DNA from: a virus
Direction: 5' to 3' (one strand)
DNA: 64,000 nt
IMG/VR virus record: IMGVR_UViG_3300045988_118131
The position numbers and the translations under genes were made by a program. The notes under the pieces are model-generated. The model did no database searches and was not told where the DNA came from. It saw only the letters and a program-made list of their open reading frames with translations. Numbering within the stretch: position 1 is the stretch's first letter; each line of letters starts with the position of its first letter. Positions 2,805 to 64,000 of the stretch are shown here, in pieces.

Positions 2805-3305
2805 ATGAGTAAGTACTTATTTTTAGATGTGGATGGAGTTTTGAATAGTGAAGCATTTTACACAGAAATATCTCAAAATGATAGAATGCTTAAAATACAT
2901 AAAGAAAATCCTAGTATGCCAGGACAAATGATATACAAGCTATCTAACTTCGATCCAAAAGCTGTAGAGAAACTTAATAGAATACTTAGAGAGACAGAGT
3001 GTAAATTAGTAGTATCCTCTAGTTGGAGATTTGATTCCGATTTAAAGGAGTTATTTAAAATGGTAGGTATCCAACAGGAAATCTTTGGGATAACAGGAAT
3101 AAGCCAAACCAGATATAGAGGATTTGAAATACAAAACTATTTAGATACTCAGAAGGATGTATTATCTTATTGTATATTGGATGATGATTGTGATATGTTG
3201 CCCACACAACTAGACAGTTTTATTCAAACTGATTTCAGAGTGGGATTAACTGAAGATAATGTTAACAAAGCAATTAATATATTAAACAAGTATGATGAAC
3301 ATTGA
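2805..3305 (+). CDS. HAD-superfamily phosphatase-like protein (166 aa)
   Basis: Motif I FLDVDGVL (DxDG), VVSSSWR, and a late ILDDD acidic motif. Confidence 0.65.
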   Translation: MSKYLFLDVDGVLNSEAFYTEISQNDRMLKIHKENPSMPGQMIYKLSNFDPKAVEKLNRILRETECKLVVSSSWRFDSDLKELFKMVGIQQEIFGITGISQTRYRGFEIQNYLDTQKDVLSYCILDDDCDMLPTQLDSFIQTDFRVGLTEDNVNKAINILNKYDEH

Positions 3306-15300: not shown

Positions 15301-18300
15301 TCAAAATAGGGACTCCAATCTACAAATATACCATCATTGTCTATACTAGCACCTAGTATAAATGCTTTATCAATGTCCAGTTATCTTATATCTTTCGATA
15401 TAAGCCCGACTATATCATCATTCCTTAATCTCACGACTATTGAATGTCTCGCACTTCAGAATCAGCTTTTTGCTGAGCAATAAATTCTTCCTTAGTAAAA
15501 TTGTCTCTAATTTTATATAATAAAGAGGGAACCTGCTCTATATAAGGTTTTACAATTTCTATAAACTTGTAACAGTCTTGTTCGGAACTGGAAGCTATAG
15601 AAAAAGTACCCTTTCCTTCTTTAAATGGTCTAAATTTTATACCCCAAACTTCACTAAAATAATTAATAATAATTTTTACAGTTTCCTCATTTACACAAGT
15701 AGCTATTTTTATGGTATGTTGAATCGAACTACGTTGTTTTGAAGTATTAACATTAATACACCCATCATCCATATACCAAATAGCTAATCCTAAAGGATTT
15801 AACCAATTTAATAATCTTCTAGTAATAGTTTTCTTTGGAATATAAACAGTCCTACGTAATGCTTTAATTGTAGGATTTATTGACATTTGAGAGTATAAAA
15901 CATTTTTTCCAGTATTGTATCCACACGAAGATATGTATTCTTTAATCCCGTTATTTTTAAAATTATATTCATTTAATAATTTTACTTTCCATTCTAAATA
16001 CTCCCTTTGAGCTTCAGAATGAGATAATTTAAATACAAAATTACTAGATATAGTCCCATCTCCTAATAACATACCTATTAACAAACTCTTTTGTTCTTTA
16101 CTAAGTTTTTTAACAATTTTTCTTGCCATTTATCCAATATTTCTAAATTAAACATTAGATAAAAGTTCTTACTCCCTTCCGGGATAGTCTGTGAACCTTC
16201 ATCCTTATAAAATACAAAGATATTAAAAATTTTGTCAACCTAAAAGTCTTTCTTTGTAAAATTTATCTAGGATGCTTGGATGCGGATTGTCCAATCTTAT
16301 CATTTTTTACTATACCTGTAGTGGTTAATTACAGCCATTAGATATATTTCTATTCTAATTTAGTATGATAAGCTCTAAGGAGGTCCCCGTCAATTCACGA
16401 GATTTAACGATTACCACATTTTGTTTCTATTTAAGCAAGCTTCAAGTTAAATTTTAGCTGATAATCGGACCCTTGAAGCCAAAGCTGGTCTGCACATATA
16501 TATACAACGTTAGAATCTGTATTAATGAATCCTTTTATAGTCATATTCATAAACGATTGCATAGACTGTGCAGGAATACGAGCTACTATAAAGTTTAGTG
16601 CCATATTTTTAAACGATATAGCCATTTTATTAGCTTTACGTTCAATGGCTCTTTCTGGAGCTTCGTATACGGCCTCTAAGTCTTCTTTTGAAGGCAATTC
16701 GTCTTCACTAGTTAGCATATTGAGTACAGAATCAGATACTAACTTAGATTTTTCTAATGCACTTGCTACATCGTGTCTGTTTACTCTATATACTACTGTT
16801 TCAGAGAATGTGCTACTATTTTCTAAATAGTTCATATCCTCTGGATTATCTAATACTGCAGCTACTATTCTTTCTCCATATTGCATTTTAGAATATAACT
16901 TAATACCCTTTTTTATAGGATATAACGGCTCTCCATTAGTATCGAGTACAAACACTTTATTATTTAATACTGCAGTTTCTGGATTATATTCTGACCACTT
17001 ACTCTTATCAAAATCTTCTCCTAATATAAGATATAAATTATTAGATGAATTTAATCCTTTTAATGCTGCAAAGGCTTTATCCGGCTTGAAATCGTTTAAG
17101 TCTGAATAATCAAATACATCATATAATTTAGTTTTAAAGAAAGTAACTGGATCTTCTAATATTGAACCTAAGTTGTCCCCTTCCTTTAGCATAAACTTAC
17201 TAGCCCAAACTTTTGGAAGAAGCATTTCGTTGGCTGAATAAGAGATTTCACCATCTAAAGGGATATATTCCAAATTAGATTTAGACCACTCTACCAACGA
17301 CGGATACTCGTGATTATACTGTATTCTTTTACAGTCTGAAATTATCCATTCCTTAATTGTTAAACCTAATTTTTTTAATGATTCCTCATTGCCCTCTATA
17401 GCTTTGTTTATATGATTAATTATGTCCCCTTCATTTCCTGTATATAATGATTCCTTGCTTTTTACAAAGTTTATAAACTTAGAAAGTCTTAATATATCTA
17501 AGTCATTAGGAACATCAGTATTAATTTCTCCAGAACTAGAAACTGACTTAACTTTTCCTAAAGTTCTAGAAAGTGAGTAACTTAGTTTGGAACTATCCAT
17601 ATCAAAACCGTCATAAACCCCTCTTTCTCCTAAATTAAATGTATAATTGTGAGGTCTTAAATTCCTTCCATATTTATTTATCTTCTCTACTTGTCTTCCA
17701 AGTTGTCTATATTTATCTCTTAAATCTTGCAGACTTATATGTTGTCTTCCGTCCTTTAGAGGTTTGAAAGTAACTTGTTTTTCTACCCCATCATCCAAAA
17801 CCCAATCTCCATTTAATACCTGTCCTGGATCTACAAGAGTATTAGGGATGTTATCTATTGGCACTACTCCATTTTTATTCTCATAATCTTCTTTGGTATA
17901 TAATTGAGTATTGCCATTTTCATCAGTATATTCGATAAGTCCAACAACATCGTGTGATGGATTTAATACTGCATTTAATCCAAAGAATTTTCTACGAATA
18001 ATATTTTGGTTTAGGTTATTAGCAAAATCAATGACAAATTTACTAAAAATATTTGGATCGTCAAAAGGAACTAGTATTTCTTTTTCTGCATTATTTTCTA
18101 GTAGATCTTCTTTAATTAATTTAATATACCTAGAAGCTAAATTTTCTGCTGATAAGTCGTCCGTACTAAATGATTGTAACAATTGCTTTCCTAAAGTAAC
18201 AATAAGTTGATTGTTATTGACATTCATAAAAGGCTCTAATCCTTTAGCTATATAAGATCCCAAGTCTCTATACACAGCTAAGGTAGTTTCATAAGAAATA

Positions 18301-54724: not shown

Positions 54725-57541
54725 TTAAGTTTTACATGGACTTATCCATCATGTCTTGTTGTGATTATCTCATATGGCTATTATAGTTTCTTCTTTTCCA
54801 GATTGTTGAGAAGTTGAAGTTCCGCTACTTATTCCTCATAGTACCTTATTTCCTCCACCACTTATAGTAACAGTATATCCAGTATTTCTAATAAAATACA
54901 TTTGCCCATCTTCTGGAGACGAGGGCATAGTTAATGTTACATCTCTAATAGCTATAACTATACTATCCATAGTACTTAAAGTAGTAGATTTAGCTATTCT
55001 TCTAGTTCTTAGTCTAAATCCACAAATATCTCCCTTAGCTAAATATAGAGCATGATTTCCAGAAGTAATCAAGTCATCATATGGAATAGCTCCAGTAACA
55101 CTAACATATAATCCAGCATTTCCTCCTGGATAATCTTCTTTTAAATCTCTAGTAACTTCTAATCGTTGAGGAGCTACTAACGAACCACCACTAGTGGCTG
55201 GAATAGTATCTCCTCCCAAGTAAGCTGTAGAACCTACTGAGGAATCAGTAAATTTTATTAAATCAGCAGATAATAACATAGTCTTAGTCTTATCCGCCGA
55301 GGTAGCTTCCATTCTAGTATCTGACAATGCAAACCCTCCTATATTACCTTTATAAGAATATATAGTACCTTTAATATAAGCATTGTTAGCGTACATATTA
55401 CCGTTCTGGTCTACATAGAAAGCTCCACTTTCTATTTTCTCTAGTTCTGTTTTAGACATTAACTTTCCAGGTTGGTTTGGATCAGTAGACGGAGTAATTA
55501 CACCAGCTGAACTTATAGCGATTACTGGAAAGGTGTTCGTAGTATCTGCACCACTATAAACTCTCCCATTCATATAACAATTTTTGCTATTAGACCACAT
55601 CATCGCATTACTAAAATTCCATCCCCCCATATGACCGTTATTAGCAAATAATATTTCTGTAGCCACTGATTCAAAAGATGCTCCAAACCTTTTTCAGTAA
55701 TCGTTCTCTCCAGAAGTAGGAGGAGTTTTACCGCTGAAACTCCCGTTAACGGTTGTCTTACTATAATAATAAGCACCATTATGATATACAACTTCTACTA
55801 AGTCAGGGCTTCCTGTATAAGTAGCTCCTGATTCATAGTTACCTCTAAAATTCATAGCTGGACCTACAGGTCCAGGGTCTCCATCCTTAACTAACCTAGT
55901 ATAAACAGCTGGTGTAGACCAAGTTCACAAAGATTCTCCAACATCTTTAACTCCATTGCTATACCAAACAACTGGTCACCTTTCACTAGGAGCAAGAGCC
56001 GATGCTGACCAGCCACTTGGCACATCGTAAGAAGGACTGGGAGTGCTAGGTGTCCTCTCATCATAGTCATAGAATATAGTTCTAAAGCTAGCCCCATCTT
56101 CTCCATTATCTCCTTTCGAAGTATATAAATTCCAATAATTAGTATTAGTAGGTAATACATTACCATAAACATCCTTTATACAGATATAGGTACTTCCTTC
56201 GTAGGAAACTACGTCCCCTTTATTATATTTTATATTGGAACTCTGTATAAATGGTCCTCTTCAATTTATCATAACTGCGGTAGAGTCTGGATCTTCTTGA
56301 GTTATATATCCTTTTATAAACAATTGCTTTAAATCAGAGTCAAATCTGATGTATGTATTTCCATTACCTATCCTAAAATTACCATTAATCATATCCCAAT
56401 AACAATTTCCAGTTTGATCTTTTATAACTCCAGTAGTTATTGTATTTCCAGCAATTTCGGTAAACCCATACATAGTTTGAAAACTTCTTACTTTAGAAGC
56501 CTTTACTGTAGAGTCGCTAACTCCTCCAGATATTTCACTGCCTCCTTCACTAAGACTAGCTCTAGGAGTATTAAGTACTCCAACTCAGAACATATAATAC
56601 CCATCCTCAGACTCTAAAAGTTTTTGTTCTGTAGACAATAAGAACTCTCCTTGATTACTAGTTTTACTACATTTTGCATACAAGTAGTAAGGCTTTCCAG
56701 GATCTAAACCAGACTGGTCGAAATCTGGAGCAGTAAGTGATCCACTTATGTTATGCAAAACCTCCCAAGTAGCTCCTACCGTATCATCATTATTTTCTAA
56801 TCCTATTGTATTATGAATTAGCAATCCAGGTCTACTTATATCAACAATAAATGCGGCGAATCTATTTTCATCACCTAAGTGATTAGGAGAAAACTTAATA
56901 TTTTCTAAACTAAATTGCTGAGAATTAGTACCAACAATTAATTGAGCTGTATGTACTGCAAGTGGAGTAATTTTCTCAGTAAAATAGTTTCCCTCTGGGT
57001 CAAACATCATATCAAATGTCTCCATTACGTCCTGCCAAGTTCTCTGTGTAAAATCACTTTGGTTCTTTAAAGCATCACGTATTTCATCTAAATTTCCAGT
57101 AATCATATCTTCTAAGTCATTAACATTAAATAATGTGTTTACCCAATAGCCACCTTGTTGTACTAGCAAATCCCCATCTCTAAGGTTAACTAACATTACA
57201 TCTTCTAGTTCTGACAGTTTAGTAACTCCTTCAGAATTGTTGTTATTATTGCCAGCGCCTCCACCTAAAGGGATGAGTGATTTTTCTACTAAGGCATACA
57301 TTCCATCCCCATTTCTTACATAGTAAAATCCAGTTTTAGTTCCAATATCATTAATAGTATCTACTACGTGAATAATAACAGGAGCGTTAATTTTACCATC
57401 CTTTATTAAGTCTATGAAGGAATTTCCTTGCTGTATTTTTACCTTACCCTTAGTTTGTATAACAAAGTCCTTATCTCTAGAACCAGCTATAACTTGCTTA
57501 GTTCCCAGAACGGAATCTGATCTAATTAACTCTTGAGACAT
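54725..57541 (-). CDS. tail fibre or spike-like protein (938 aa with TGA as sense)
   Basis: ORFs 56585..57541, 56261..56473 and 54836..55666 plus the open stretches between them are in one frame. There are eight TGAs (56585, 56261, 55976, 55925, 55694, 54836, 54770, 54749). The composition is Gly/Ser/Thr/Asn/Tyr-rich. The function is inferred. Confidence 0.5.
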
Positions 57542-60498: not shown

Positions 60499-61497
60499 TT
60501 ACTTAGCTATTTCTACATAAAGACCAACTAAAGCTGATAAATCATGATATACTGGCTGTCCAGAGTTTCTAGTACATTTATAGACCACACCATTTTGTGA
60601 ATAATATTTACCAGCAAATAATTCCATATTATTATTATAAGGAATAGGATCTTCTAAAGTTCCTTGATTAGTTTCGTTAATTTCTTCATATAAAGCAGCA
60701 GTATGAATTGAAGGTGGTTGATTTTCTAATACAGTAGCTATAGTCTGTTTAACTTTATATAATTTATTTTGATACAATACTTTCATTCCAGTATCTAATT
60801 TTCCACCTACAAAAGATTCCCATTTAGGATAAAGTAATTTCATTGAAAGAGATTGTTCATCTGTAAGTTCCAAAGTGTTAATAAATGATTGTGCAAATAA
60901 TACACTTTGATTTACTACAGAATTTTCTTCATATTCTTTTGCAGCTGTTACTAAACCTTCAGAAGTTAATTCTACCTTATCAGGAAATTTAATATCATAA
61001 TTCACTTTTTCCAAATCTTCTAAAGAAGTACACTTCTTAATAGAATCTATTAAATCTTCTCTATTACTTTCACAAGTTTCATAGTATTCATTTAATCTAA
61101 TCATTGCTTGTAAAGCAGACTTACTGTCTAATGAGATACCACAATCTACACAAGGAATAGTAACATTAGCATCACTATTTTCACATTTAATTTTAATAGT
61201 AGATATAGCATCTTTACTTAATACACATTTATGACCATTAATTGATGTTTCGTTTTTAATAAAAAATTCATTACACCAACTTATAATGGTTTGTTTAATA
61301 TCTTCTATAGATGGTTTAAAATAGAACCTTTCATAAGTCCAAGTAGCTAAATTAGTTGGAATTGTTCCAGGTTCGTTTTCTGGAGTGCCTTCTTCTTTAT
61401 CAAATACATCTTTATAATACCATCTAACTACAAAAACGTTTTCACTTTCTTGTTCAAATTGTTTGTAATTAGTCTTTAAATCAGTAATTCTAATCAT
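60499..61497 (-). CDS. hypothetical protein (332 aa) with two C-terminal CBM5/12-like repeats
   Basis: ATG ORF starting 3 nt after the RT stop. The repeats GMKVLYQNKLYKVKQ...PPSIHTAALYEEI and GKYYSQNGVVYKCTRNSGQPVYHDLSALVGLYVEI resemble small carbohydrate-binding modules. The resemblance is weak. Confidence 0.5.
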   Translation of the reverse strand: MIRITDLKTNYKQFEQESENVFVVRWYYKDVFDKEEGTPENEPGTIPTNLATWTYERFYFKPSIEDIKQTIISWCNEFFIKNETSINGHKCVLSKDAISTIKIKCENSDANVTIPCVDCGISLDSKSALQAMIRLNEYYETCESNREDLIDSIKKCTSLEDLEKVNYDIKFPDKVELTSEGLVTAAKEYEENSVVNQSVLFAQSFINTLELTDEQSLSMKLLYPKWESFVGGKLDTGMKVLYQNKLYKVKQTIATVLENQPPSIHTAALYEEINETNQGTLEDPIPYNNNMELFAGKYYSQNGVVYKCTRNSGQPVYHDLSALVGLYVEIAK

Positions 61498-61499
61498 AA

Positions 61500-62699
61500 T
61501 TAATAGTTGTTTTGAATTATTTTGTTTAATAATCTATGCTTAGTAGTATATTCTTCCTTACATATAAATTTACTATAATCTGGAGCTATGTCCACTACTT
61601 CATATCATCTTTTAGAAATCATATTAGCATATTTCTTTCTTATATTATAGGATTCGTATTTACCTAAAAACCCATAGTAGCTATTAAGAACGCTTATGAA
61701 ATGCTCAGCTTTTTCTGCTGGATAATATTCATATTTCTCAGCTAGATCGTTGAATTTAAATATAGTTTGATGTAAGTATGCTACTGTCCTGTTTGCAGAA
61801 TATTTAAACTTACCTTTAACTACAGCTCCTATAAATTTACAACCTTTCTTATAATATTGAATGTATAATTTCTTAGGGTGTAAAACTATTTTAAGATTAT
61901 CTTTTAAGTAATTTCTTATTCACGGAACAGAATCTAATAGTAGTTTTTTGTCTTTACTTATTACAAAGAAGTCGTCTACATATCTGCCATAGTATTTGAA
62001 TTTCTCTACCATTAGTTTGTCAAAAGTATTCAAATAAAAATTAGCAAACATTTGACTTGTTAAATTACCAATTGGCAGTCCATAATCTTTGTCTACAGTA
62101 AATAAAGATTTATTAGCTGGCAAATCATCTCACATGAAATCTGGAGATTTTCTAATACAATTGTTTTGAGGGCAATTGTTTACAATTTTTGTTACTAGTT
62201 CTAGTATTATATCAACATCATCTTCTTTATAATTTTCTTTTATAAAAGTTATTAACATTTTCAATAAAGTAGGTTTGTGGATAGACATAAAAAATCCTTG
62301 CAGATCAAATTTAGCAATGTAACAAGGTTGAGTGTAGTTTTCACTACACTCTTTTACTTGTTCATGAAGTCTATTTATTCCGTATAGAGTTCCTTTCTCT
62401 ACTCTACAATTGTAATTGTCTTTTATAAATTCTCTCTCAAATAAGGGTTCTAATCTTAACATAACTAAATGATGTACAACCCTATCTCTGAAATCAGCTG
62501 CAAATACCTCTCTCTTTTTAGGTTTAGTTACTATAAATGCTATACTTCTTCCTATCTCATAAGTTCCATCCATAATATCTTTGTATAGTTTAGCACATTC
62601 TATTTCCCAATTTATTTCAAATTTTAATGCATTACAAGTATTTCTCTTATTTTTTCTGCATTTGTAATAAGCAGAAATTACATCCTCTAAAGCAATCAT
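61500..62699 (-). CDS. DGR reverse transcriptase (399 aa with TGA as sense)
   Basis: ORFs 62130..62699 and 61920..62123 and the open frame down to TAA at 61500 are joined by TGA at 62130, 61920 and 61605. Motifs: FAADFRDRVVHH, LPIGNLTSQMFANFYLN (the DGR-type IGxxxSQ) and YGRYVDDFFVIS (YxDD). Confidence 0.85.
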
Positions 62700-62724
62700 A
62701 CAATATAATTAGGGCACTTAAAGA

Positions 62725-63121
62725 ATATCAGGGACGACAGTAGAGGGTGAAGTTCTTATCGTTGTTGTTGATGTTCAGTGTTGTTATCATAAAGCATTTT
62801 ATTCTTTATTTCATATAGTTTTCCATTCTATATGCTCAGACTATATCTTTATCCTAACAGGATAATGGGCGCTCGTGTTAGTATTATGTTCTCTTAAAAT
62901 TTAATTCGGATTTTTCTTTTAAATGGTAAGAGTTTCAACTATTAGTCGTTGAACCTTCTAAAGTTGTTAAGCTCTAGCTTGGCTGCTGATTGTCCATATT
63001 AATAGGAGGATTTCCAGCAATTCACCCATTTTTCTAATATTCATTACTGAATATTGAGGCTTGTTTAGTAAACCACTATCTCAATTCAATTTCCACGCGT
63101 TGTTCGACGAGTACTCCGTTG
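62725..63121 (-). repeat. DGR template repeat (TR), split: 5' part 63072-63121, 3' part 62725-62775
   Basis: When joined, the two parts give 101 nt collinear with the VR at 63746-63846. 91 of 101 positions are identical, and all 10 mismatches are at TR adenines (minus-strand sense). Confidence 0.9.
62776..63071 (-). ncRNA. ORF-less group I intron (296 nt) inside the DGR template repeat
   Basis: The boundaries are fixed by collinearity with the VR. The upstream TR segment ends in U and the intron ends in G. Core elements: P GAAUUGCUGGAAA (63011-63023), Q ACAAUCAGCAGCC (62981-62993), R GGUUCAACGACUAAUAG (62939-62955), S AAAGAUAUAGUCUGAGC (62834-62850). P2 is AAUAUUCA-GUAA-UGAAUAUU. P4 is UGCUGG/UCAGCA. 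Confidence 0.85.
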
Positions 63122-63312
63122 CGTTCTTACGATTATATTGTCTTAGCTATTTCGTGTATTTTTATATATAATTTTTGTAATATTTTTACACGGGTCTAGC
63201 ACGTAAGCAGCTTCTTTAAGTTTGTTTAAAATAAATAAATAACATCTTACTCTAAACTTAGGCTCCTCCTAGCATAACCTTAGTCACACTAGCTCTATTT
63301 TATATATTGTTG

Positions 63313-63693
63313 TTAAGATGCTTGCATACATAAGCATTCCTCTATATTAGAGAAATGTTGAACGAAACGTGCTTGTTGTTGATAACTTATCAACTCTTTT
63401 TCAAAACTGGCTCTTATAAGTATTTTTACCGTTTCGTATTTAACCCTATATTTTTCTAGACAACTTTGTCTAGTATTAGGATTTTCCCAGTTTTGATGAG
63501 CTAGCGCCAAATAGGCTACTAGCTCACAACTATTATCCATAATTCTGTCTCCTAATGTAAATCTTGAGTTTTTAGGAAACGTTTCTATACATCCTATTAC
63601 TTCTAACATAAACTTATATGTTTTCTCATATAACGGTAAGCTTTCTATCTTACTTTTCATGTCATATTGCTCTTTTGTTTTAGTTTTTAACAA
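63313..63693 (-). CDS. avd: DGR accessory variability determinant (Avd)-like four-helix-bundle protein
   Basis: 115-126 aa, located between VR and TR as in canonical DGRs. The motif FPKNSRFTLGDRIMDNSCELVAYLALA is typical of the Avd / S23-intervening-sequence protein family. The start is probably the ATG at 63658-63660. Confidence 0.7.
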   Translation of the reverse strand: MLKTKTKEQYDMKSKIESLPLYEKTYKFMLEVIGCIETFPKNSRFTLGDRIMDNSCELVAYLALAHQNWENPNTRQSCLEKYRVKYETVKILIRASFEKELISYQQQARFVQHFSNIEECLCMQAS

Positions 63694-63698
63694 AGTTA
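63691..63698 (-). promoter_or_regulatory. candidate -7 box TAACTTTG upstream of avd-TR-RT
   Basis: Matches TAnnTTTG on the minus strand between the target-gene stop and the avd ATG. No clear -33 element. Confidence 0.35.
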
Positions 63699-63736
63699 AT
63701 TTTACTTATATTGTTTCATTTAATTTCATCTATATT

Positions 63737-64000
63737 TTATAGTACATATCAGGGACGACAGTAGAGGGTGAAGCGCTTACCGCTGCTGATGATGGTACCA
63801 CTATCTCAACTCAATTCCCACGCGTCGTTCGACGAGTACTCCGTTGAAGCCCAATGATAACCTGTAAGCATAGCTGTACCTCCAATTTTACTTAGAGCAC
63901 TATCTACCTGAGATTTATTATTATAAGCTGTTTGTCATTCACCCAAAGCTGGAAGGTATCCTTTTCTATTTTCACCCCCAATATTAATGGACTTCGATCT
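63737..64000 (-). CDS. DGR target protein, C-terminal part (partial; gene continues beyond the window)
   Basis: Translation: ...NRKGYLPALGE[TGA]QTAYNNKSQVDSALSKIGGTAMLTGYHWASTEYSSNDAWELS[TGA]DSGTIISSGKRFTLYCRP[TGA]YVL-TAA. This matches the DUF1566/C-type-lectin-fold pattern of DGR variable proteins (YWSSTE..NAW.VNF.NG....K....VR.V). Confidence 0.8.
63746..63846 (-). repeat. DGR variable repeat (VR)
   Basis: 101 nt at the 3' end of the target gene. It differs from the spliced TR only at 10 adenine-templated positions (for example AAC to GAC, ACC, ATC, AGC or CGC). Confidence 0.9.

Follow-up and report, generated by a model that had tools for sequence, protein, structure and literature searches.

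Here we describe a diversity-generating retroelement (DGR) at the end of a 64,000-nucleotide stretch of viral DNA (IMG/VR record IMGVR_UViG_3300045988_118131; hereafter the window), the template repeat (TR) of which is interrupted by a group I intron. The element runs on the minus strand from position 64000 down to 61500, in the order target gene with variable repeat (VR), Avd gene, TR and reverse transcriptase (RT) gene, which confirms the order proposed earlier from the letters of the window (the original prediction). We regard the locus as a genuine, complete and active DGR, and favour the explanation that its TR is a split gene for a non-coding RNA, which would be spliced before it templates the VR. 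For this explanation as a whole, which includes the assignment of the phage to the TGA-recoded, crAss-like gut phages, we estimate a probability of about 0.85. The DGR itself is of a known type; what is new is that a group I intron occurs naturally, and is conserved, within the template repeat, together with population evidence for the spliced RNA as template and a single precise intron loss that is coupled to hypermutation of the template.

In the window, the TR is found as two pieces, TR-a and TR-b (50 and 51 nt), each of which repeats one half of the VR in direct orientation and which lie 296 nt apart (Table 1). When the pieces are joined, the spliced TR differs from the VR at 10 positions, all of which are TR adenines, and the other 91 of 101 positions are identical. 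With 34 adenines in the 101 nt of the window TR, the hypergeometric probability that 10 of 10 mismatches fall on adenines is 6.8e-6. The ten adenine-specific mismatches of the original prediction are therefore reproduced, but only after removal of the 296-nt insert; the TR proposed there does match the VR, but it is split, and the insert was not named, a “spliced TR” being mentioned only in passing. The last 19 nt are identical between TR and VR, so the repeat contains no difference of the IMH/IMH* type (initiation of mutagenic homing). No further VR was found in the rest of the window or its flanks.

The insert, which is the central feature of the locus, is identified as a group I intron by its match to Rfam family RF00028 (71.5 bits against a gathering score of 50, E = 2.5e-18; model positions 1–253 of 253, at 63081..62823), obtained by searching 441 nt. 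Rfam searches of the whole window (gathering threshold) and of 2.6 kb (E ≤ 10) returned no match. These longer scans missed the intron because of their speed filters, and as it surfaced only in the short-stretch search, the negative whole-window scan is no evidence of absence.

The VR sets the exon boundaries independently of the RNA model (…GUGGU/UUACUAAACAAGCCUC and …ACACUG/AAC, with the slash marking the boundary), and the boundaries deduced in this way coincide exactly with the canonical splice sites after U and after G. The last U of the 5' exon lies opposite the G of the guide sequence GCCUC in P1, a U-G pair also found in the Rfam alignment, and the terminal base of the intron is a G, at 62776. 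The intron is inserted in phase 0, between a Gly and an Asn codon of the repeat. The catalytic core sequences AAUUGCUGGAAA, AAUCAGCAGCC, GUUCAACGACUA and AAGAUAUAGUCU are all present and pair as expected, and the core resembles that of other phage introns, including those of crAssphage. The fold is better than that of shuffled sequences (z = -3.65; 0 of 100 shuffles as good), and the thermodynamic prediction recovers P1, P2 with a GUAA loop, P3, P4-P6, P8, P9 and P9.1, together with a long hairpin between P7 and P3', which we read tentatively as P7.1/7.2 and which would suggest subgroup IA. The helix coordinates in Table 1 are predictions from a hand-made pairing scheme based on the Rfam alignment and the fold.

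A second group I intron is located on the minus strand at 15386-16263, with a partial match to RF00028 (30 bits, E = 2.3e-5), an R-like GTTCACAGACTA at 16196 and an S-like GATATAGTC at 15416. It contains an open reading frame (ORF) for a 230-aa LAGLIDADG homing endonuclease (16129..15440; Pfam E = 4.6e-29) and lies between ORFs of 876 aa and 2106 aa, which may be exons of one giant gene. Default-filter Rfam scans of long stretches missed both introns of the window, and AT-rich phage introns need to be searched in short stretches.

Relatives of the window were collected by look-ups with the RT, Avd, the 332-aa gene downstream of the RT and the exon-intron junction, which gave 33 good-quality assemblies from different samples, several of them 170-178 kb, and one error-prone long-read contig (individual genomes and loci are denoted by L numbers below). 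The phage is widespread, its Avd sequence being indexed in 593 blocks of a public assembly collection. An intron of 296 or 297 nt is found at the identical site in 32 of the 33 assemblies. TR-a is identical in most of these genomes, and the ancestral spliced TR, also the same in most genomes, contains 38 adenines. In the 29 genomes with both the intron and a full VR, we counted 424 mismatches between the VR and its own TR, of which 419 are at TR adenines. The mismatches straddle the junction, with 165 of the 424 upstream (at least 3 per genome) and 259 downstream (at least 5 per genome). As for the full VRs, 29 of 30 are distinct, and 31 of the 36 variable columns are TR adenine positions, which is the hypervariability at adenine-templated sites that had been anticipated.

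At two of the other five variable columns (positions 12 and 19), the VR base matches a change in the TR of the same genome. TR-a carries C19T in L115 and C12T in L117, and the same T is found in each genome's own VR, which implies an exchange of information between TR-a and the VR in genomes that carry the intron. Between two genomes that were compared, identity is 98.6-99.8% in the flanking genes but about 80% in the VR, indicating that the diversification is recent relative to the shared intron. Moreover, the contigs of L001, L107 and L108 break at the same place in the VR, directly 3' of the last variable codon, which suggests that the VR is heterogeneous within samples.

The only assembly of the 33 without the intron is L098 (Logan SRR33789863_18707, 3040-3139), in which the gap between Avd and RT is 316 nt instead of 613 nt. 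Its TR is 100 nt long and intron-free, keeps the TR-specific flanks on both sides and contains the exact junction (…GTGGT/GGC…). In this TR, 30 of 38 adenines are changed (18 to G, 9 to T, 2 to C and 1 deleted) and two non-adenine substitutions are present, a substitution spectrum similar to that of the VRs, and the Trp codon TGA, which is invariant in all VRs, is replaced by TGT; both the RT and the Avd gene are intact. Most simply, a spliced, adenine-mutagenised complementary DNA (cDNA) would have homed into the TR itself, perhaps repeatedly, and would thereby have deleted the intron and stripped the template of adenines.

The frameshift and the TGA-to-TGT change indicate that the L098 TR is not a copy of a functional VR. 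Plain gene conversion from VR to TR was rejected on the basis of the at least 9 non-adenine changes that it would need, the frameshifted length of 100 nt and the mutated Trp codon. The bases shared by the L098 TR and its own VR had been considered as the trace of a common intermediate, but this was withdrawn, because the L098 TR shares bases to a similar extent with 26 other VRs (3-11 of 10-18, compared with 10 of 17 for its own VR), which is explained by the A-to-G bias. As the L098 sequence departs at many positions from TR and VR alike, short-k assembly could not have created it by joining the two, given how such assemblies are built. The intron-less spliced TR (GAGATAGTGGTAACATCAACAAC) had 0 matches in IMG/VR.

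Milder TR changes, nearly all at adenines, are found in the window, L100, L103, L110 and L113. For example, L113 has six adenine changes, all in TR-a, and retains the intron. In the window, TR-b positions 74, 75, 80 and 81 (62744-62751) read TTC..CTC where all other genomes read AAC..AAC, by which four template adenines are lost, and the window VR bears the same bases as its own altered TR-b. This change could be due to partial self-retrohoming or to VR-to-TR conversion, and it is not explicable as an assembly chimera via a shared k-mer. More generally, the milder changes fit leaky self-targeting or VR-to-TR conversion, given the identical 3' ends of TR and VR. An 11-nt deletion (ACTGTCGTCCC) is also present at the TR 3' end of L101 (about 1340-1390). 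Together with L098, the milder variants suggest that templates can be worn down by their own cDNA and that the RT can delete an intron precisely from DNA.

Several points weigh against the favoured explanation. Splicing and the use of the ligated RNA are deduced from DNA alone, where the contiguous VRs of 30 genomes and the exact intron-less TR of L098 point to them, and L098 is a single contig from one sample. Some TR adenine variants are absent from the genome's own VR (position 9 in L103 and position 21 in L113). In the intron itself, no clear P10 can be formed with the 3' exon, the exon arm of P1 contains a U-U mismatch, and the terminal G is changed to A in L114 (one genome, coverage 3.8x). 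In addition, the intron-bearing genomes all belong to one species-level lineage, so that the age of the intron is shallow and there is almost no covariation.

Three other explanations were weighed against this evidence. If the intron had been inserted recently and had inactivated the DGR, the VR diversity would be older and the intron would have spread horizontally into already diversified phages. Such a history is hard to reconcile with an intron that lacks an endonuclease ORF and occupies the same site in 32 of 33 assemblies, with 29 of 30 VR alleles distinct inside flanks of about 99% identity, with the copying of non-adenine TR-a variants into their own VRs in L115 and L117, and with the deletion and hypermutation in L098, which need a spliced RNA intermediate. 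It does agree with the near identity of all intron copies, with an intron-rich phage (at least one other intron, with a LAGLIDADG endonuclease) and with mosaic genomes such as L002 (RT 83.6% against about 99% for the flanks), and we consider it very improbable on balance. We give equally little credence to TR-a and TR-b being two independent short TRs, each of which templates its own half of the VR without splicing. Repeat finders do give two separate TR-VR pairs here, and three pairs were published for the similar phages Lera and ct1yV3 (PMC12386605); however, the VR contains the two pieces joined without gap or overlap, canonical group I splice sites form their inner ends on either side of a 71.5-bit ribozyme, the similarity of TR-a to the VR does not extend 3' of the junction, the first codon past the junction is mutated like the others, and L098 joins the halves exactly. 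The least probable is that the RT copies unspliced RNA and crosses the intron by template switching, of which reverse transcriptases are capable. Landing on the same nucleotide in 30 VRs and L098 is not expected of such jumps, and an intact, conserved ribozyme core would be left unexplained.

For the spliced TR that we favour, the order of steps that we infer is as follows. The region of Avd, TR and RT would be transcribed, and the intron would excise itself from the TR RNA by cutting after the guide-paired exon U and after its own terminal G. The ligated TR RNA of 101 nt would then be reverse-transcribed by RT-Avd with misincorporation opposite adenines, and the cDNA would replace the contiguous VR at the 3' end of the gene for a 712-aa tail protein with immunoglobulin (Ig)-like repeats and a probable lectin-like domain. 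Now and then the DGR may hit its own TR, as presumably in L098, which would be able to erase both the intron and template adenines.

The intron is most likely a selfish passenger, tolerated in the TR because it does no harm once spliced out. A role as a working part of the DGR seems doubtful to us; in that case the intron would break the homology between TR and cDNA and so limit adenine-stripping self-retrohoming between repeats with identical 3' ends, and may also tie diversification to conditions that permit splicing. The loss of the intron and the loss of adenines do coincide in L098. If the intron were such a safeguard, a DGR could drive precise RT-mediated intron loss from DNA.

Table 1. 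Coordinates of the DGR features and of the predicted intron elements in the window.
Feature	Position	Strand	Remarks
Target gene, 3' end (partial, runs off the window)	63737..64000	minus	last 87 codons
VR, 101 nt, contiguous	63746..63846	minus	10 mismatches to spliced TR; 29/30 alleles distinct
Inverted repeat CTATA-AAA-TATAG, overlaps target stop codon	63730..63742	minus	probably a chance feature
Avd accessory gene, 115 aa from ATG	63313..63660	minus	Pfam bAvd, NCBIfam DivGenRetAVD
TR-a, 5' half of TR and 5' exon, 50 nt	63072..63121	minus	ends …GAUAGUGGU
Group I intron, 296 nt, ORF-free	62776..63071	minus	Rfam RF00028
P1 guide sequence	about 63062..63056	minus	G12 (63060) opposite last exon U
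P2 hairpin, GUAA loop	63055..63036	minus	
P3	63030..63023 with 62871..62864	minus	
P4	63020..63015 with 62988..62983	minus	
R element GUUCAACGACUA	62954..62943	minus	
Long P7.1/7.2-type hairpin	62932..62891	minus	
P8	62862..62851	minus	
S element AAGAUAUAGUC	62849..62839	minus	
P9	62834..62813	minus	
P9.1	62810..62789	minus	
TR-b, 3' half of TR and 3' exon, 51 nt	62725..62775	minus	starts AACAUCAAC…
DGR RT, 399 aa	61500..62699	minus	IGNLTSQ and YVDD; three in-frame TGA

The RT matches Pfam RVT_1 (E = 5e-14), and its best relative of solved structure is a 328-aa reverse transcriptase in entries 8ub7-8ube (8ub7_A, E = 1.3e-24; 5e-4 for a group II intron RT), which we take to be the Bordetella phage DGR RT. 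With the NCBIfam models for group II RTs (82/300) and retron RTs (49/235), two classes that would have argued against the original prediction, the RT falls far short of the cut-offs, and its motifs IGNLTSQ and YVDD are those of the DGR clade ([ILV]GxxxSQ in motif 4, YxDD). A total of 6937 RT homologues were found at E ≤ 1e-10, and most loci with related RTs contain an ordinary A-biased TR/VR pair. The RT gene of L002 (6001-7200, compared with 61500-62699 of the window) has only 83.6% nucleotide identity to that of the window, compared with about 99% for Avd, for the intron and for the gene downstream, and the genomes are thus mosaic.

The Avd-like protein proposed earlier has full-length matches to NCBIfam DivGenRetAVD (E = 3.9e-12; 46 bits, cut-off 80) and Pfam bAvd (E = 2.4e-7; 31.7 bits, cut-off 40), both of which agree with that proposal and are under the curated cut-offs. 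An alternative TTG start at 63693 is chosen by some gene callers. The spacer between Avd and TR-a is 191 nt, and that between TR-b and the RT start is 25 nt.

With TGA read as Trp, the part of the target in the window reads …YHWASTEYSSNDAWELSWDSGTIISSGKRFTLYCRPWYVL followed by the stop codon. In the relatives L002 and L088 the full target has 712 aa, with repeated Ig-like modules and a putative C-terminal Lcl_C/C-type-lectin-like domain. The full-length target of L002 matches Pfam Lcl_C (formerly DUF1566) below threshold (20.5 bits, E = 6e-4, cut-off 34.9). For a homologous target domain of 54% identity, an AlphaFold model was obtained with a pLDDT (predicted local distance difference test) of 93.7, and its fold matches include the Lcl C-terminal domain (E = 6e-3), the Bacteroides fimbrial protein 4eps (TMq 0.67), invasin-type adhesins, LOX-1 and C-type lectins, none of them at E ≤ 1e-3. 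Searches of PDB sequences with Avd and with the target domain gave nothing useful. We consider a lectin fold likely for the target C-terminus. The DUF1566/CLec-fold signature that had been claimed is weakly supported by the sub-threshold Lcl_C match, and the target ends …LYCRPWYVL, not …LYCRP. Directly upstream of the VR, 154 nt of the target (63847-64000) have about 86% identity to L002/L088.

The DGR is surrounded by structural genes of the phage, including that of a major head protein with distant crAss-like relatives, and a 938-aa tail-fibre-like gene lies nearby (57541..54725), in line with the predicted adjacency to a tail-fibre module. Within this gene, nine clustered substitutions are present at 56702-56750 relative to the otherwise 99.7%-identical L001. 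Directly after the RT, a 332-aa gene (60499-61497) is found in every genome, with 99.5-99.8% identity in L002 and L088; its only matches are to PHROGs of no assigned function, besides weak ones that resemble carbohydrate-binding modules. A DUF4376 gene takes its place in the nearest relatives that lack the intron.

The RT and target ORFs are continuous only when TGA is a sense codon. Two of the three TGA codons of the RT align with the Trp residues W190 and W365, which are invariant or nearly so across 37 homologues; the site 62130-62132 in the RT is among the TGA sense-codon sites. When TGA is read as sense, the long-ORF coverage of the window rises from 63.8 to 82.7 kb, and TGA is found as a Trp codon in many late and structural genes (8 each in the 938-aa and 1523-aa ORFs). 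No tRNA genes were found in the 64-kb window. VR and TR each contain one TGA Trp codon, the third base of which, as an adenine, is open to mutagenesis; nevertheless, none of the 30 VRs shows a change in this codon.

The inverted repeat just after the VR, for which the original prediction had proposed a hairpin or cruciform role as in Bordetella-type DGRs, is present but folds no better than expected by chance (-1 kcal/mol as DNA; 22 of 200 shuffles equally good). Bordetella-type elements have a GC-rich stem of 7-10 bp with a GRNA tetraloop, 4-34 bp after the VR (PMC3240598). The only inverted repeat after the VR here has a stem of 5 bp, all A/T, with a 3-nt loop, which is not of this type, and we therefore rejected it as a functional element.

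Among known DGRs, the nearest by RT sequence (≤60% identity; L003, L008 and those of Bacteroides phages F1/F2/F4) belong to the same RT clade, contain Avd and have a TR of about 100 nt just upstream of the RT with a similar W.LNW...NNNN motif. In contrast, their TR is contiguous, and the site homologous to the insertion is uninterrupted (GATGGT/AGC in L008). In 80 IMG/VR loci with RTs of 38-60% identity, all detectable TR/VR pairs are contiguous and none is split, with about ten loci giving no pair, mostly those in which the contig end is too near the RT. Within these limited screens, the split-TR arrangement appears to be confined to this phage lineage. The INPHARED phages gave no megablast match to the locus, and full-text literature searches for group I or self-splicing introns in DGR template repeats returned only experimental uses, reviews and surveys, with no report of a natural intron in a TR.

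The most similar phages in the literature are the Zeta crAss-like “Echekvirus” phages Lera and ct1yV3, which have genomes of about 180 kb, TGA as Trp, a 399-aa RT, Avd and a target with Ig and C-terminal lectin domains (PMC12386605). By this published description, they share their features with the 170-178 kb relatives of the window, and the window phage is probably of the same or a sister lineage. The authors reported “three TR-VR pairs”, in which some substitutions are at positions other than adenines, and called the mechanism puzzling, with a TR intron not mentioned (PMC12386605). A split TR would, by our inference, explain at least two of the three pairs. DGR finders assume a contiguous TR, and they miss such loci or split them into several TR-VR pairs, which seems to have happened for these published phages; some DGRs described as TR-less may also be of the split-TR type.

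The intron belongs to the same ribozyme family as known phage group I introns (T4 td; the crAss-like introns in the major capsid protein, PolB and the dUTPase region) and shares their P/Q/R/S core. Those known introns split protein-coding genes, whereas what is split here is a non-coding RNA that serves a retroelement as template. Of 120 further IMG/VR phage introns with the P/Q core in common, none adjoins an RT.

Compared with the BPP-1 DGR (mtd-VR/avd/TR/brt), the locus has the same gene order, an Avd, an RT with IGxxxSQ, adenine-specific mutagenesis from TR to VR and, by prediction, a tail protein with a variable, ligand-binding C-terminus. Unlike BPP-1, its TR is split by an intron, the repeat holds no IMH/IMH* difference, no GC-rich GRNA hairpin is present and TGA encodes Trp. 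Guo et al. (Mol Cell, 2008) reportedly used the T4 td group I intron, placed in the TR of the Bordetella phage, to show that the spliced RNA is the template. In this system, splicing removes the td intron from the TR RNA ahead of cDNA synthesis (Naorem et al. 2017, PMC5703328). The td-tagged TR is a laboratory construct with T4 td exon tags, while the intron here is natural, is found in 32 of 33 genomes and brings no foreign exon sequence. The locus parallels in nature the experiment by which an RNA intermediate was established for DGR retrohoming; it would add splicing as an obligatory step to the DGR cycle and may offer a tractable system for the order of folding, splicing and RT-Avd loading.

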